From a virus, in the UHGV virus genome UHGV-0322540: a DNA stretch of 12,346 nt. One strand, given 5' to 3'. The first letter of the stretch is position 1, and each line of letters opens with the position of its first letter. The notes under the pieces were generated by a model. That model was not told where the DNA came from. It saw nothing but the letters and a program-made list of their open reading frames with translations, and searched no databases. This document shows, one piece after another, positions 588-12,346 of this stretch. The position numbers and the translations under genes were made by a program.

Positions 588-4268
<3,681 letters not shown>

Positions 4269-4294
<26 letters not shown>

Positions 4295-4814
4295 TCAGCA
4301 ACCCCGGTATCAGTTCATCCAGCGCGGCTGCTTTGTTCATGGCTTTGATGATATCCCGTTTCAGGAAATCAACATGTCGGTTTTCCAGTTCCGGAAAACG
4401 CCGCTGCACCGACAGGGGGATCCCGTCGAGAATACTGGCAATTTCACCTGCGATCCGCGACAACACGAAAGTACAGAATGCGGTTTCCACCACTTCAGCG
4501 GAGTCTCTGGCATTCTTCAGTTCCTGTGCGTCGGCCTGCGCACGCGTAAGTCGATGGCGTTCGTACTCAATAGTCCCTGGCTGGAGATCTGCCTCGCTGG
4601 CCTGCCGCAGTTCTTCAACCTCCCGGCGCAGCTTTTCGTTCTCAATTTCAGCATCCCTTTCGGCATACCATTTTATGACGGCGGCAGAGTCATAAAGCAC
4701 CTCATTACCCTTGCCACCGCCTCGCAGAACGGGCATTCCCTGTTCCTGCCAGTTCTGAATGGTACGGATACTCGCGCCGAAAATGTCAGCCAGCTGCTTT
4801 TTGTTGACTTCCAT
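4269..4814 (-). CDS. nu1: Terminase small subunit Nu1
   Basis: 181-aa ORF MEVNKKQLADIFGASIRTIQNWQEQGMPVLRGGGKGNEVLYDSAAVIKWYAERDAEIENEKLRREVEEL..., recognised as lambda Nu1. Lies immediately beside cosB. Confidence 0.96.
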
Positions 4815-4837
4815 TGTTCATTCCACGGCCAAAAACA

Positions 4838-4953
4838 GAGAAAGGAAACGACAGAGGCCAAAAAGCTCGTTTTCAGCACCTGTCGTTTCCTTTCTTTTCA
4901 GGAGGTATTTTAAATAAAAACATTAAGTTACGACGAAGAAGAACGGAAATGCC
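4838..4953 (-). promoter_or_regulatory. cosB: Nu1-binding R elements R1 (4838-4856), R2 (4877-4894, inverted), R3 (4934-4953) with an AT-rich IHF-type site between R2 and R3
   Basis: Three copies of the CGTTTCC/GGAAACG core (one degenerate, GGAAATG) in the arrangement and spacing expected for lambda cosB between cosN and the Nu1 start. The sequence matches my recollection of the lambda left end. Confidence 0.75.
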
Positions 4954-4992
4954 TTAAACCGGAAAATTTTCATAAATAGCGAAAACCCGCGA

Positions 4993-5004
4993 GGTCGCCG
5001 CCCC
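4993..5004. other. cosN: 12-nt cohesive-end site (AGGTCGCCGCCC here, complement of lambda GGGCGGCGACCT); cosQ-side sequence follows to about 5060
   Basis: Exact 12-mer of the lambda cohesive end, flanked on one side by ...CGCGGGTTTTCG (lambda left end) and on the other by CGTAACCTGTCGGATC... (lambda right end), both in reverse complement. Confidence 0.9.
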
Positions 5005-5202
5005 GTAACCTGTCGGATCGCCGGAAAGGACCCGAAAAATGATAATAATTATCATCTACATGTCACAACGTGCATCTACGCCATCAAACCACGTCAAATA
5101 ATCAATTATGACGCAGGTATCGTATTAATTGATCTGCATCAACTTAACGTAAAAACAACTTCAGACAATACAAATCAGCGACACTGAATACGGGGCAACC
5201 TC

Positions 5203-5436
5203 ATGTCAACGAAGAACAGAACCCGCAGAACAACAACCCGCAACATCCGCTTTCCTAACCAAATGATTGAACAAATTAACATCGCTCTTGAGCAAAAAGG
5301 GTCTGGGAATTTCTCAGCCTGGGTCATTGAAGCCTGCCGCCGGAGACTGTGCTCAGAAAAAAGAGTTTCGCCTGAAGCAAACAAAGAAAAGAGTGACATT
5401 ACTGAATTGCTCAGAAAACAGGTTAGACCAGATTGA
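5203..5436 (+). CDS. Small ribbon-helix-helix (Arc/MetJ-type) DNA-binding protein, YlcI/YnfO-like (DUF3950-like)
   Basis: 77-aa ORF with a GGGG Shine-Dalgarno about 9 nt upstream. The segment RNIRFPNQMIEQINIALEQKGSGNFSAWVIEACRRRL fits the RHH pattern (strand, helix A, G-x-N turn, helix B), comparable to Arc FNLRWPREVLDLVRKVAEENGRSVNSEIYQRVMESF. Family name is from memory of small proteins next to Nu1 homologues in E. coli cryptic prophages. Confidence 0.6.
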   Translation: MSTKNRTRRTTTRNIRFPNQMIEQINIALEQKGSGNFSAWVIEACRRRLCSEKRVSPEANKEKSDITELLRKQVRPD

Positions 5437-5492
5437 AGCAATTTAGATAATCGTGCAGACTACGCCCCTCATATCACATGGAAGGTACTACA

Positions 5493-5903
5493 ATGGCTCA
5501 GGTTGCCATTTTTAAACAAATATTCGATAAAGTGCGAAATAATTTAAACTATCACTGGTTTTATTCTGAACTAAAACGTCACAATGTCTCACATTACATT
5601 TACTATTTAGCCACAGAGAATATTCATCTTGTTCTTGAAAACGATAATACGGTTTTAATAAAAGGACAGGGTAAGGTTGTAAATGTAAGATTTTCAAAAA
5701 ATAAATGCCTTATAGAAGCCACCTTAAAAGGATTCAAATCAGGAGAGTTATCATTTTACGAATACAGAAAAAATCTTGCTACAGCAGGGGTTTTCAGATG
5801 GATTACAAATATCCACGAAAACAAAAGGTATTACTATACCTTTGATAATTCATTACTCTTTACTGAGAACATTCAGAACACTACACAAATATTTCCGCAC
5901 TAA
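5493..5903 (+). CDS. DUF1398-like protein (YbcV/YdfO-like), function unknown
   Basis: ORF track gives 5478..5903, but the second ATG at 5493 has a GGAAGG Shine-Dalgarno about 9 nt upstream, giving 136 aa ([42 protein letters not shown]...). Strongly AT-rich compared with neighbours. Resemblance to YbcV/YdfO is from memory only. Confidence 0.62.
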
Positions 5904-6252
5904 ATCATAACGTCCGGTTTCTTCCGTGCCAGAACCGGACTCGCTGGCATGATGAAATATGTGTACCCGGTAACCCCGGTGTGCATCGTTTTTGATTATT
6001 CCCGCACACTCGCGCAGAAGGAGTTCCCCGTCGGGCTACGGTCTCTGTTAATACGGGAATACGGCGACGATACAGCGCATGATGTGTCAGGCTTGAATGC
6101 CTTTATCCGTTAAAAGGGATATCAGTTAAGTTATCCCGTGCAGGGTATAAGCCATTATCAAGCCCACCCGTAGATGGGCTTTGTAATGGATAGCCGTTGC
6201 TCAGTTCTAGTAATGCTTTGATTTTTTCGATAACGCAGTTTTGCGTTTGCCA

Positions 6253-6774
6253 TCAGCACGCGATATCGAGAGTCAACTGCAGTTGCTCGCGCCAGTACTC
6301 AACATTTGCTTCAATAACCGGCTTATCCCATCGCCAGCGAGCCATCTCTCTTGCCCCATTGCTGGCTTTTGATTTCCGGTCATCGCGAATGCGACATGCT
6401 TGCTCATATTTCTGCTGCTCAGTCAGTTCACCGCGAAGCAGACTATCAATGTGCAGGTCGCACCACACAGCAAAACGAGCATCACACCAACGGGCAAATG
6501 CAACTGAAAGTTTTGGATGTAGCCACGTACCACCACCCCTGTCCTTTCGTGCCTTGCTGGTTTTTACATACCTCGATTGTGAGGGATGTAAAATTTGAGA
6601 TTCTTTCCCGGTCAACGCTTCGTCTAAAGCACGAACGTATTCAAGCGTTTCTGCCAAACGCATCCAGTTATCAATGCGTTTCCCAAATCTCTCAGCAACA
6701 CCTGTGACGTTGATCCAACCATCAGTGTTGAAACTGACAATTTCACCTTTGTAATTAAGTGGCACGATATTCAT
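6253..6774 (-). CDS. KilA-N domain (APSES-type DNA-binding) protein
   Basis: 173-aa ORF MNIVPLNYKGEIVSFNTDGWINVTGVAERFGKRIDNWMRLAETLEYVRALDE...GGGTWLHPKLSVAFARWCDARFAVWCD..., showing the characteristic KilA-N core (tW.hP.La..FA.W). AGGTAA Shine-Dalgarno-like sequence about 7 nt upstream. Same strand as, and downstream of, the lysis genes. Confidence 0.68.
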   Translation of the reverse strand: MNIVPLNYKGEIVSFNTDGWINVTGVAERFGKRIDNWMRLAETLEYVRALDEALTGKESQILHPSQSRYVKTSKARKDRGGGTWLHPKLSVAFARWCDARFAVWCDLHIDSLLRGELTEQQKYEQACRIRDDRKSKASNGAREMARWRWDKPVIEANVEYWREQLQLTLDIAC

Positions 6775-8092: not shown

Positions 8093-8498
8093 GCTCTACC
8101 CCTTCATTGAGGGGATTTGCTCTATTTAATTAGGAATAAGGTCGATTACTGATAGAACAAATCCAGGCTACTGTGTTTAGTAATCAGATTTGTTCGTGAC
8201 CGATATGCACGGGCAAAACGGCAGGAGGTTGTTAGCGCGACCTCCTTCCACCCGCTTTCACGAAGATCATATGTAGAAGGCCGCAGCGTAACTATCACTG
8301 ATGAATTCAGGATAGCCAGTGGCTACGGCTCAGTTTGGGTCGTGCTGTTGCTGGGCGGCGATGACGTCTGTACGCATTTGGTGATCCGGTTCTGCTTCCG
8401 GTACTCGCTTAATTCAGCACAACGGAAAGAGCACTGGCTAACCAGGCTCGCCGACTCTTCACGATTATCGACTCAATGCTCTTACCTGTTGTACAGAT

Positions 8499-8556
8499 AT
8501 AAAAAATCCCGAAACCGTTATGCAGGCTCTAACTATTACCTGCGAACTGTTTCGGG
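8499..8556 (-). terminator. tR' intrinsic terminator (3' end of the 6S RNA)
   Basis: On the minus strand: stem CCCGAAAC (8556-8549) / GTTTCGGG (8515-8508) with an internally paired loop, then A and a T-run (8506-8499). Matches the lambda tR' region GGGATTTTTTATATCTG as recalled. Confidence 0.75.
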
Positions 8557-8693
8557 ATTGCATTTTGCAGACCTCTCAGCCTGCGATGGTTGGAGTTCCA
8601 GACGATACGTCGAAGTGACCAACTAGGCGGAATCGGTAGTAAGCGCCGCCTCTTTTTATCTCACTACCACAACGAGCGAATTAACCCATCGTT
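8499..8693 (-). ncRNA. 6S RNA: short pR'-initiated leader transcript ending at tR' (substrate for Q antitermination)
   Basis: Distance from the predicted pR' start (about 8693) to the tR' T-tract (about 8499) is about 195 nt, consistent with the roughly 194-nt lambda 6S RNA. Sequence is lambda-like throughout. Ends are approximate. Confidence 0.6.
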
Positions 8694-8699
8694 GGGTCA

Positions 8700-8728
8700 A
8701 ATTTACCCAACTTTATTCAAAAAGTCAA
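8700..8728 (-). promoter_or_regulatory. Late promoter pR' with overlapping qut site
   Basis: On the minus strand: -35 TTGACT (8728-8723), 17-bp spacer, -10 TAAATT (8705-8700), followed by the initial transcribed sequence ...TGACCCAACGATGGG... carrying the -10-like pause element. Matches the lambda pR'/qut arrangement as recalled, immediately downstream of Q. Confidence 0.65.
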
Positions 8729-8770
8729 TATCATGCCGTTAATATGTTGCCATCCGTGGCAATCATGCTG

Positions 8771-11651: not shown

Positions 11652-11824
11652 TTCCTCGCACGATGTCTTAGCCACCGGATATCCCACAGGTGAGCCGTGT
11701 AGTTGAAGGTTTTTACGTCAGATTCTTTTGGGATTGGCTTGCGTTTATTTCTGGAGCGTTTCGTTGGAAGGTATTTGCAGTTTTCGCAGATGATGTCGGT
11801 GATACTTCGTCGCTGTCGTCTCAT
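11648..11824 (-). CDS. ninE: NinE
   Basis: ORF track extends to 11914, but the internal Met at 11824, preceded by an AGGAGG Shine-Dalgarno, gives [58 protein letters not shown] (58 aa), matching lambda NinE as recalled. ATGA overlap with the upstream methyltransferase stop. Confidence 0.82.
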
Positions 11825-12346
11825 GCCGCCCTCCTGACGCCCTGCCCGATCGCCATCAATGCCGCTTTGGATACGGTAGTAAACATCCGTCGAGGACTGA
11901 TGAACGGTCGCCAAATCAGCAGCATGGAACCTTTGCTGTTTCCCTTCTTCTCCAGCCCCGTCGATGGTTCGATAAAATTAATCCGTCCATCAGTGATAAT
12001 GCGAACTTCGTCAACGCTCTCCAGAGCCTTGCTGAACCAGCCGACAGACATATCTTCTGGCACAAGCATCACTACCGCCTGTCGCTGTTGTATGCACTGC
12101 TCAGCGGCTTTTTCCACCCACGGTCTGATATTGCTGTACGGTGGGTTATTCCAGATTGCACCGTGGCTTATCCACTCAGAATTTAGCGCGTCGTCGGCCT
12201 CAGTCAGCCAGTGAGCACACAGAGCATTTTTGTCGCTCGCTGCCGAATCCAGCCAGAATCCAAACTCAATATCCAGTGCATCAAAAAGCCAAAGCGGCGT
12301 TTGCCAGCAGTCCTTGTCGTGTGCTGGCGTATTTGATTTGATAGTC
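11821..12346 (-). CDS. Phage Dam-family DNA N6-adenine methyltransferase, C-terminal part (N-terminus beyond the right edge)
   Basis: My manual minus-strand translation is open from the right edge to the stop at 11821: ...[71 protein letters not shown]...[12 protein letters not shown]... It contains the NPPY catalytic motif (12147-12136) and the upstream LD.AAS motif typical of phage Dam methyltransferases. The ORF-track entry 11821..12117 is only its tail. Confidence 0.8.

Follow-up and report, generated by a model that had tools for sequence, protein, structure and literature searches.

What are two small genes doing between the cohesive end and the lysis genes of a lambda-type phage, where they read against the late operon, and do they belong together? 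The question is raised by UHGV virus genome UHGV-0322540, of which a stretch of 12,346 nucleotides (nt), called the window throughout, was analyzed; it represents the late region of an Escherichia coli phage or prophage of lambda type, with the late operon on the minus strand (open reading frame (ORF) list and Pfam matches). A model that had seen only the letters and their ORFs (the sequence-only reading) had pointed to two plus-strand ORFs separated by 56 nt, antisense to the late operon and lying between cos and the lysis genes, and had proposed that they form an AT-rich moron of two components, of the kind seen in toxin-antitoxin (TA) systems. The layout is borne out by the coordinates, the cosN site and the Pfam families of the neighbors. 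Our preferred reading, which we regard as probable without being secure, is that the two are accessory genes, each separate from the other and not a TA pair, which occupy the variable slot that a lambda-type prophage has between its lysis genes and cos. Our confidence is high for the identity of the two genes and their independence, and moderate to low for the regulatory mechanism. The two genes are as follows:

Positions 5203-5436, plus strand: gene 1, 77 amino acids (aa), a YlcI/YnfO protein (DUF3950)
Positions 5493-5903, plus strand: gene 2, 136 aa, a soluble DUF1398 protein of the YbcV/YdfO/YcgX family, 31% GC (guanine plus cytosine), with two alpha-alpha-beta-beta-beta repeats

Both identities are firm. 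Gene 1 matches PF13132 (DUF3950; E=2.8e-21, 75.6 bits, cut-off 25; Pfam), NCBIfam NF041551 (YlcI/YnfO; 36.7 bits, cut-off 30) and PHROG 949, and gene 2 matches PF07166 (DUF1398; E=3.3e-43, 147 bits, cut-off 22) with profile positions 1-119 of 119 covered; these are the two families that the sequence-only reading had expected from a hidden Markov model search, and RefSeq names in identical E. coli DNA agree with the YlcI/YnfO and YbcV/YdfO identities. In the ORF list gene 2 runs from an upstream ATG (5478-5903, 141 aa), but its likely start is the ATG at 5493, because a GGAAGG Shine-Dalgarno sequence lies 7 nt upstream of it, the RefSeq start is placed there and the alignment to the solved structure 2HH8 begins there. 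The 56-nt spacer places the two genes in different reading frames, with start codons 290 nt apart. They appear to be the only convincing plus-strand genes in the window, as had been claimed: the other long plus-strand ORFs (3467-4234, 2663-3139, 11690-12214 and 8342-8626) have no Pfam match and lie opposite minus-strand genes or within the Q-S spacer. A small plus-strand ORF at 5949-6113 (54 aa) is annotated in one phage record and not by RefSeq.

The independence of the two genes is seen most directly in their distribution. In a tblastn survey of 50,697 phage records, gene 1 was found in 155 records and gene 2 in 43, and at least 112 of the 155 carry gene 1 without gene 2. Phage 434 has cos, DUF3950, bor and Rz and no DUF1398, and in BP-4795, Stx1_699 and Lys8385Vzw, DUF3950 stands alone beside an HNH/TerS/TerL packaging module that replaces Nu1/A; in these HNH-type phages gene 1 is divergent from HNH, with start codons 41 nt apart, and has no co-directional neighbor. 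Gene 2 is likewise found alone: full-length DUF1398 homologues with 23-44% identity occur as lone chromosomal genes in K. aerogenes (flanked by genes for a lipoprotein and an adenosine deaminase), in Raoultella, as E. coli ycgX (adjoining bluR) and elsewhere, and no DUF3950 match was found in the flanks of these chromosomal homologues. The proposed two-component module is not supported by the survey, since each gene occurs alone and the two largely fail to co-occur across genomes (434, Stx-type phages and chromosomal DUF1398). Weak matches to gene 1 were dismissed in Pasteurella phage Pmp7 and in vB_KppS-Ant, where annotated genes occupy the other strand.

Where the two genes do adjoin, they vary separately. 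The same 77-aa gene 1, tail included, precedes gene 2 alleles of either 99-100% or 75-77% identity among 80 IMG/VR loci, and one gene 1 shared by two gene 2 alleles about 24% apart is unlike a co-evolving antitoxin-toxin pair. Of 5,426 complete E. coli genomes, about 1,900 contain the same DNA, and the sequence-only reading was right to recall that the pair recurs beside Nu1 homologues in cryptic prophages, as ynfO-ydfO beside nohA in Qin and as ylcI-ybcW-ybcV beside nohD in DLP12. One apparent DUF3950+DUF1398 fusion (P0014; 233 aa, from a cluster of 761) was rejected as a gene-calling artefact, being Qin-type ynfO-ydfO with TGA read as W.

Comparison by blastn with lambda, 434 and BP-4795 resolves the locus into a mosaic with sharp breakpoints at 5365, 5420, 5961-5972 and 6080, across which the cargo is present in some phages and absent from others, as expected of a moron. 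Window 4800-5365 corresponds to lambda (locus L001) 1501-2066 at 96% identity and window 5420-6079 to L001 2680-3339 at 82.5%, while 434 retains only 5004-5365 and 5972-6079 of the window, and BP-4795 only 5203-5343 and 5961-6080. Two segments delimit the exchange:

Positions 5366-5419, plus strand: junction segment, 54 bp inside the gene 1 tail, where lambda and DLP12 have 614 bp (blastn breakpoints)
Positions 5961-6080, no strand assigned: conserved block, some 120 bp long, with which the variable slot closes (82-93% identity by blastn) and overlaps the ORF at 5949-6113

The 614 bp of lambda and DLP12 supply gene 1 with a different tail and also carry ybcW, which reads from the opposite strand. 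The adjacency seen here, which is the Qin arrangement, differs from that of lambda and DLP12 by this one insertion or deletion. The closing block lies between ybcV and bor in lambda, upstream of bor in 434 and just downstream of Rz in BP-4795, and the annotated bor promoter of HK629 falls within the stretch homologous to it. From these breakpoints, the first ~47-54 codons of gene 1 and the 120-bp block form a constant frame, and the stretch that they enclose is all exchangeable cargo. Among the four phage types, gene 2, ybcW, bor and KilA-N can be swapped for one another. The last 17 nt of gene 1 (5420-5436) already belong to the exchanged part, being homologous to DNA upstream of ybcV in lambda.

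Base composition fits the same division. As had been judged by eye, gene 2 is AT-rich, with a GC content of 0.311 (third-position GC, 0.30) against 0.508 for the window, 0.53 for Nu1 and 0.44-0.62 for the neighbors; gene 1, at 0.444, deviates only marginally. The position between cos and the lysis genes, which is lambda's bor slot, is moron-like as proposed, so far as place is concerned.

Gene 2 matches the solved YdfO structure 2HH8 both in sequence (about 76% identity) and in fold, and its model is an orphan pseudo-dimeric alpha/beta fold of two alpha-alpha-beta-beta-beta repeats. The DUF1398 family is small, with 189 clusters at 50% identity, many of them fragments, among 1.84 billion representatives. 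The protein has no signal peptide or membrane segment (highest 19-residue hydropathy, 0.39), matches no toxin family or toxin fold, and has no significant match in PADLOC-DB 2.0, where the only match was to Csx23 (E=0.023, 12.7 bits). We read gene 2 as separately acquired AT-rich cargo that encodes a soluble cytoplasmic protein. Three features surround its coding sequence:

Positions 5417-5433, no strand assigned: PdhR-type box AACAGGTTAGACCAGAT, matching the reported PdhR box of Qin (ynfO/ydfO) and DLP12 (ybcV/ybcW)
Positions 5424-5451, plus strand: promoter-like sequence TAGACC-16-GATAAT, a 9/12 consensus match only, 41 nt upstream of the gene 2 start
Positions 5912-5940, plus strand: hairpin GUCCGGUU...AACCGGAC just past the gene 2 stop, without a U-run (minimum free energy and centroid folds)

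PdhR boxes in Qin (ynfO/ydfO) and DLP12 (ybcV/ybcW) were reported from genomic SELEX (systematic evolution of ligands by exponential enrichment), and ybcV mRNA is down 10-fold in a pdhR mutant (PMC7660256). The block with the box is kept in the window and in lambda, DLP12-type and Qin-type loci, and lambda homology resumes exactly there; our PdhR consensus scan (at most 3 mismatches) missed 5417-5433 because the box has 4 mismatches. The promoter-like site overlaps the box, its GATAAT is also present in the homologous region upstream of ybcV in lambda and DLP12, and it is a candidate promoter, on consensus resemblance, for gene 2 alone. Since the box and promoter block stands where lambda homology resumes, gene 2 brings its own upstream region with it, and it probably has a promoter of its own, overlapping the PdhR-type box. 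As with other AT-rich genes of foreign origin, nucleoid silencing would probably hold its expression down until stress switches it on. No canonical terminator for the gene pair was found in the scan; the hairpin at 5912-5940 was unflagged by it, folding of 5896-6120 is no better than that of shuffled sequences on either strand (z -0.86 and -1.25), and the hairpin is at most a weak terminator or stabilizer.

Gene 1 encodes a basic protein (pI 10.6) with an Arg/Thr-rich N-terminal arm holding 6 Lys/Arg among its first 16 residues, putatively followed by a ribbon-helix-helix (RHH) core at residues ~13-50, with a tail at the C-terminus that varies. Over the first ~50 residues it is almost the same as the proteins of lambda, 434 and 2H10, and it differs by 5-7 substitutions from the Lys8385Vzw and BP-4795 types; the tail beyond residue ~50 is the least conserved part. 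Over the first 50 codons the ratio of synonymous to non-synonymous differences is 20:5 against Lys8385Vzw and 11:7 against BP-4795, phages with unrelated upstream DNA; this excess of synonymous changes marks gene 1 as a functional protein-coding gene under purifying selection. The fold had been called a textbook RHH. Of that claim the sequence pattern and the helix layout stood, with a modeled extended N-terminus followed by helices at residues 19-32 and 34-54, and the support expected from structure and profile searches did not; the fold is most likely Arc-like RHH, a statistically weak assignment drawn from sequence pattern and model, with hints from the top Foldseek matches, the hhalign register with Arc and a HicB-like PHROG match (E=0.009). 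On our preferred reading, gene 1 is most likely the conserved anchor of the slot at the genome end that is packaged last, and would bind DNA as a small basic Arc/CopG-like RHH dimer. It would act as a transcriptional regulator in the prophage state, probably autoregulating, and would possibly control the neighboring antisense genes or the cos/terminase junction.

The junction itself holds the packaging signals and, next to them, a palindrome:

Positions 4992-5003, minus strand: cosN, the 12-nt cohesive end, GGGCGGCGACCT on the minus strand (exact match)
Positions 5027-5033, minus strand: cosQ-like heptamer GGGTCCT (exact match), at the position of the cosQ annotated in phage 434
Positions 5039-5055, no strand assigned: perfect palindrome of 17 bp, ATGATAAT-A-ATTATCAT, which lies 6 bp inside cosQ, with gene 1 following about 150 nt downstream

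The cosN site is kept in the alignment with lambda and other loci and marks the phage genome end, with the gene pair on the right-arm side. The palindrome had no counterpart in 200 shuffles and is present in all 35 lambda-type cos loci fetched, and could be an operator or a part of cos; it resembles what we take to be the Fur box consensus. It was not found upstream of gene 1 in HNH-type phages (L050, L055 and L056 are not among the matching loci), and its absence from phages that do carry gene 1 means that it is not a universal gene 1 operator. A minus-strand sigma-70-like site, GTGACA-16-TATCAT, overlaps the palindrome and is directed at cos and Nu1 (consensus scan). Among the loci with the palindrome is L007 (Escherichia sp. 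MOD1-EC7003, 3941-5555), in which the small terminase subunit is only 37% identical to the window's Nu1 and the cosB side is unrelated, and in which the DNA running from just left of cosN across both genes hardly differs from the window; this pattern places a recombination joint at cos itself.

The homologues of E. coli K-12, expressed from cryptic prophages and reacting to stress, supply what is known of expression. Transcription of ydfO rises more than 100-fold with ionic liquid (PMC4077768), ybcV rises more than 1000-fold on expression of T4 MotB, which perturbs H-NS, and is also raised in sabinene-adapted cells, and convergent ybcW and ylcI transcripts overlap in at least 50% of RNA-seq samples. 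Published work has made use of a Keio ybcV::Kan strain and of an ASKA clone that over-expresses ybcV, with lethality unreported and the ASKA clone scored for glycogen, so this DUF1398 homologue appears not to be overtly toxic. A 2025 survey drew no consistent inference for ycgX, and in the literature searched no phenotype is reported for either family apart from one mis-cited claim. That claim, that over-expression of YdfO gives resistance to oxidative stress (PMC4077768), was rejected: the work cited for it, Wang et al. 2010 (PMC3105296), covers yfdO, never mentions ydfO, and reports yfdO, yfdK and yfdS of prophage CPS-53, and the gene names ydfO and yfdO were probably confused in PMC4077768. 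Separately, a 2026 preprint on an immune NADase domain (10.64898/2026.09.04.749371) contains six occurrences of ybcW/lambdap79 and eight of 'escape'.

Several points weigh against our preferred reading. Antitoxin-toxin operons usually have a small RHH gene placed before a larger one; gene 2 lies 56-59 nt downstream of the 77-aa form of gene 1 in 79 of 80 IMG/VR loci, and co-transcription is likely in this arrangement because no terminator-like site stands between the genes. The case for an RHH regulator is met by a gene 1 model with a predicted local distance difference test score of 67.5 and no strand in the monomer, by Foldseek matches of which the top ones are RHH proteins (NikR, ParD2 and a VapB-type antitoxin), all at E>=5, and by an hhalign comparison that sets RNIRFP...KG of gene 1 in register with FNLRWP...NG of Arc at E=0.018 and a probability of only 2.5%. 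The DUF3950 alignment profile matched nothing among PDB sequences at E<=10, gene 1 matched DUF3950 alone and no RHH family in Pfam at E<=10, and a Foldseek search of BFVD gave no match at E<=0.001. The consensus scan yielded no promoter for gene 1, and k-mers common to the lambda-type and HNH-type regions upstream of gene 1 revealed no common operator. All data on expression and viability come from the K-12 homologues, not from this element, and we infer silencing of gene 2 by H-NS from base composition and indirect data.

Some of these points would suit a type II TA or autoregulated module, in which gene 1 is an RHH antitoxin and repressor whose C-terminal tail neutralizes a DUF1398 toxin: a larger gene follows the small putative RHH gene after 56 nt in the same orientation, the two stay adjacent in 79 of 80 ynfO-type loci, the weak Foldseek matches include the RHH antitoxins ParD2 and Rv0301, and PHROG gives a HicB-like match (E=0.009). 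We nevertheless consider such a module very unlikely, given that gene 1 so often occurs without gene 2 in phages and gene 2 homologues without gene 1 in several chromosomal contexts, that opposite-strand ybcW splits the pair in lambda and DLP12, and that the tail supposed to neutralize the toxin is the least conserved part of gene 1, is partly DNA found upstream of ybcV in lambda, and is the same for gene 2 alleles ~24% apart, with no co-variation of tail and toxin; the ASKA ybcV over-expression clone was also viable enough for glycogen scoring. Protection of the lysogen, with gene 2, alone or under gene 1, as an anti-phage, superinfection-exclusion or lysogenic-conversion factor in the manner of bor, is unlikely as well, though it draws on bor's own position, the antisense orientation to the late genes, the foreign base composition, the very wide occurrence in E. 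coli prophages, the transcription of homologues from cryptic prophages and the mentions of ybcW/lambdap79, the gene between the two in lambda, alongside 'escape' in the preprint on an immune NADase. Neither protein has a significant PADLOC match (none at all for gene 1 in PADLOC-DB 2.0), searchable papers report no phenotype, the stand-alone homologues of Klebsiella and Raoultella sit in ordinary metabolic neighborhoods, and gene 2, unlike Bor and Lom, lacks a signal peptide or membrane segment. A further reading, which we regard as decidedly unlikely, makes DUF3950 no accessory of DUF1398 but a dedicated genome-end regulator common to lambdoid phages with unrelated packaging modules, and DUF1398 one of several plugged-in effectors with an undescribed host-directed or anti-phage activity; gene 1 would then be an Arc-like repressor, encoded at the end that is packaged last and ejected first, that guards the prophage cos/terminase junction from stray transcription or acts just after DNA entry, a suggestion to which we give equally little weight.

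The place of the pair at the genome end also invites the idea that these are first-in genes, transcribed on DNA entry before circularization and either countering a host barrier or biasing the choice between lysis and lysogeny. In lambda the right end is the last to be packaged and the first to enter; the pair is located less than 1 kb from that end and reads inward from the cosN side, and gene 1 keeps its place near the right end in both lambda-type and HNH-type genomes. Against this, the scan identified no promoter in the DNA from the end to gene 1, any gene 1 promoter in HNH-type phages would lie inside HNH, since the two start codons are only 41 nt apart, and ejection of lambda DNA is fast, so that the advantage in time would be small. 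Gene 1 is moreover basic and repressor-like, unlike known anti-restriction DNA mimics, and homologues are transcribed in cryptic prophages that never inject, which together leave the idea highly improbable. Least of all do we credit gene 2 with being a virion or envelope component, a notion that we would all but discard. The label 'head protein' comes through PHROG 413 and is repeated in RefSeq phage records NC_001416, NC_019711, NC_042057 and others, and 'putative envelope protein' is found in older lambda-type records; these labels and 'phage envelope protein' were rejected for DUF1398 because sequence, orientation, distribution and the literature searched lend them no support. Gene 2 is antisense to the late operon that makes virion proteins, has neither signal peptide nor membrane segment, has homologues that are single chromosomal genes far from any phage, and is dispensed with by 434 and the Stx phages. 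Two separate accessory genes, one a conserved anchor and the other exchangeable cargo, thus remains the reading that we prefer.

The remainder of the window is that of a lambda-type late region. The minus-strand genes are, in order, portal, a W-like gene, the large terminase subunit and Nu1, then KilA-N, Rz, lysozyme, holin, Q, phosphatase and Nin genes, so that the two plus-strand genes have Nu1 and the large terminase subunit on their left and KilA-N, Rz, lysozyme, holin and Q on their right. The KilA-N gene (6253-6774, minus strand; E=8.2e-22) takes the place of bor in lambda and 434, and has a weak PADLOC match to candidate defence protein PDC-S22 (E=1.2e-5) and PHROG matches named 'transcriptional regulator'. 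The Q-holin spacer (8093-8770, about 680 bp) has no family-matched ORF; the closest relatives (E. coli ECCHD184 and PhiR49_1) have a plus-strand OmpC/OmpD-like porin gene in this spacer, so the element in this window is without that moron. An Rfam search of the window found nothing. Among the loci compared, L013-L040 are lambda right-end DNA in assemblies labeled Pseudomonas, Shewanella, Flavobacterium, Cohnella, Bradyrhizobium and others, often on contigs of about 3.5 kb or at the ends of contigs of about 48.5 kb. This looks like contamination by lambda control or spike-in DNA, and the ~3.5 kb contigs presumably correspond to the nanopore lambda control amplicon, whose size we recall as similar. 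The same contamination accounts for the many ~3.5 kb ENA contigs in the protein match lists, and since matches in the genome-contig scan are mostly of this origin, that scan says little on taxonomic range.

Both genes belong to known, catalogued families with no known function that are present in lambda and in the majority of E. coli genomes, so that nothing new has been found in the pair as such. The analysis removes the TA reading, identifies DUF3950, and not the pair, as the conserved unit of the slot, with DUF1398 as swappable cargo, finds no visible basis for the 'head protein' and 'envelope protein' labels, and traces the sole published YdfO phenotype to a confusion with yfdO. It leaves a modest open question, that the best-studied phage, lambda, carries two conserved genes under selection without a known role.

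Among known loci the closest is ynfO-ydfO of Qin, which has the same 77-aa YlcI/YnfO protein, a 56-59 nt spacer, a 136-aa DUF1398 protein and an adjoining Nu1 homologue and cos; in the Qin-type locus L009, gene 1 is 98.7% identical, tail included, and the PdhR-type box stands at the end of gene 1. The window differs from Qin in carrying the other allele of gene 2, about 76% identical to YdfO, and in having its two ORFs in different frames, whereas those of Qin are in one frame and are fused by some callers across a TGA. Lambda and DLP12, with a ylcI-like ORF, ybcW (lambdap79), ybcV (lambdap78) and, in lambda, bor, are 96% identical to the window across cos and the N-terminal part of gene 1 and 82.5% identical across gene 2 with the region upstream of it, with both genes antisense to the late operon. 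Lambda differs in its extra 614 bp, which give gene 1 another tail (64 aa) and bring in opposite-strand ybcW (L001 2263-2469; not in the window), and in having bor where the window has the KilA-N gene.

The Arc, Mnt and CopG repressors resemble gene 1 in size, in the basic N-terminal arm, in the order N-x-R-[FW]-P, helix, G, helix, and in matching helix lengths; they differ from it in that no significant sequence or structure match links them, and the dimer and DNA binding ascribed to gene 1 would follow from this likeness. ParD-ParE, CopG-like-VapC and HicB-HicA are like the pair in gene order, in sizes and in having the putative RHH protein first, but type II TA operons differ from it in faithful linkage, a toxin fold, the lack of a promoter-like site in the spacer and a conserved tail on the first protein. 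Bor and Lom are outer-membrane proteins with known phenotypes, unlike the soluble, basic proteins of the window, for which no phenotype is reported. The pair is nevertheless like lambda bor and lom, which are expressed in lysogens (PMC7067206), in lying in the late region with a deviating base composition, and it occupies bor's own slot.

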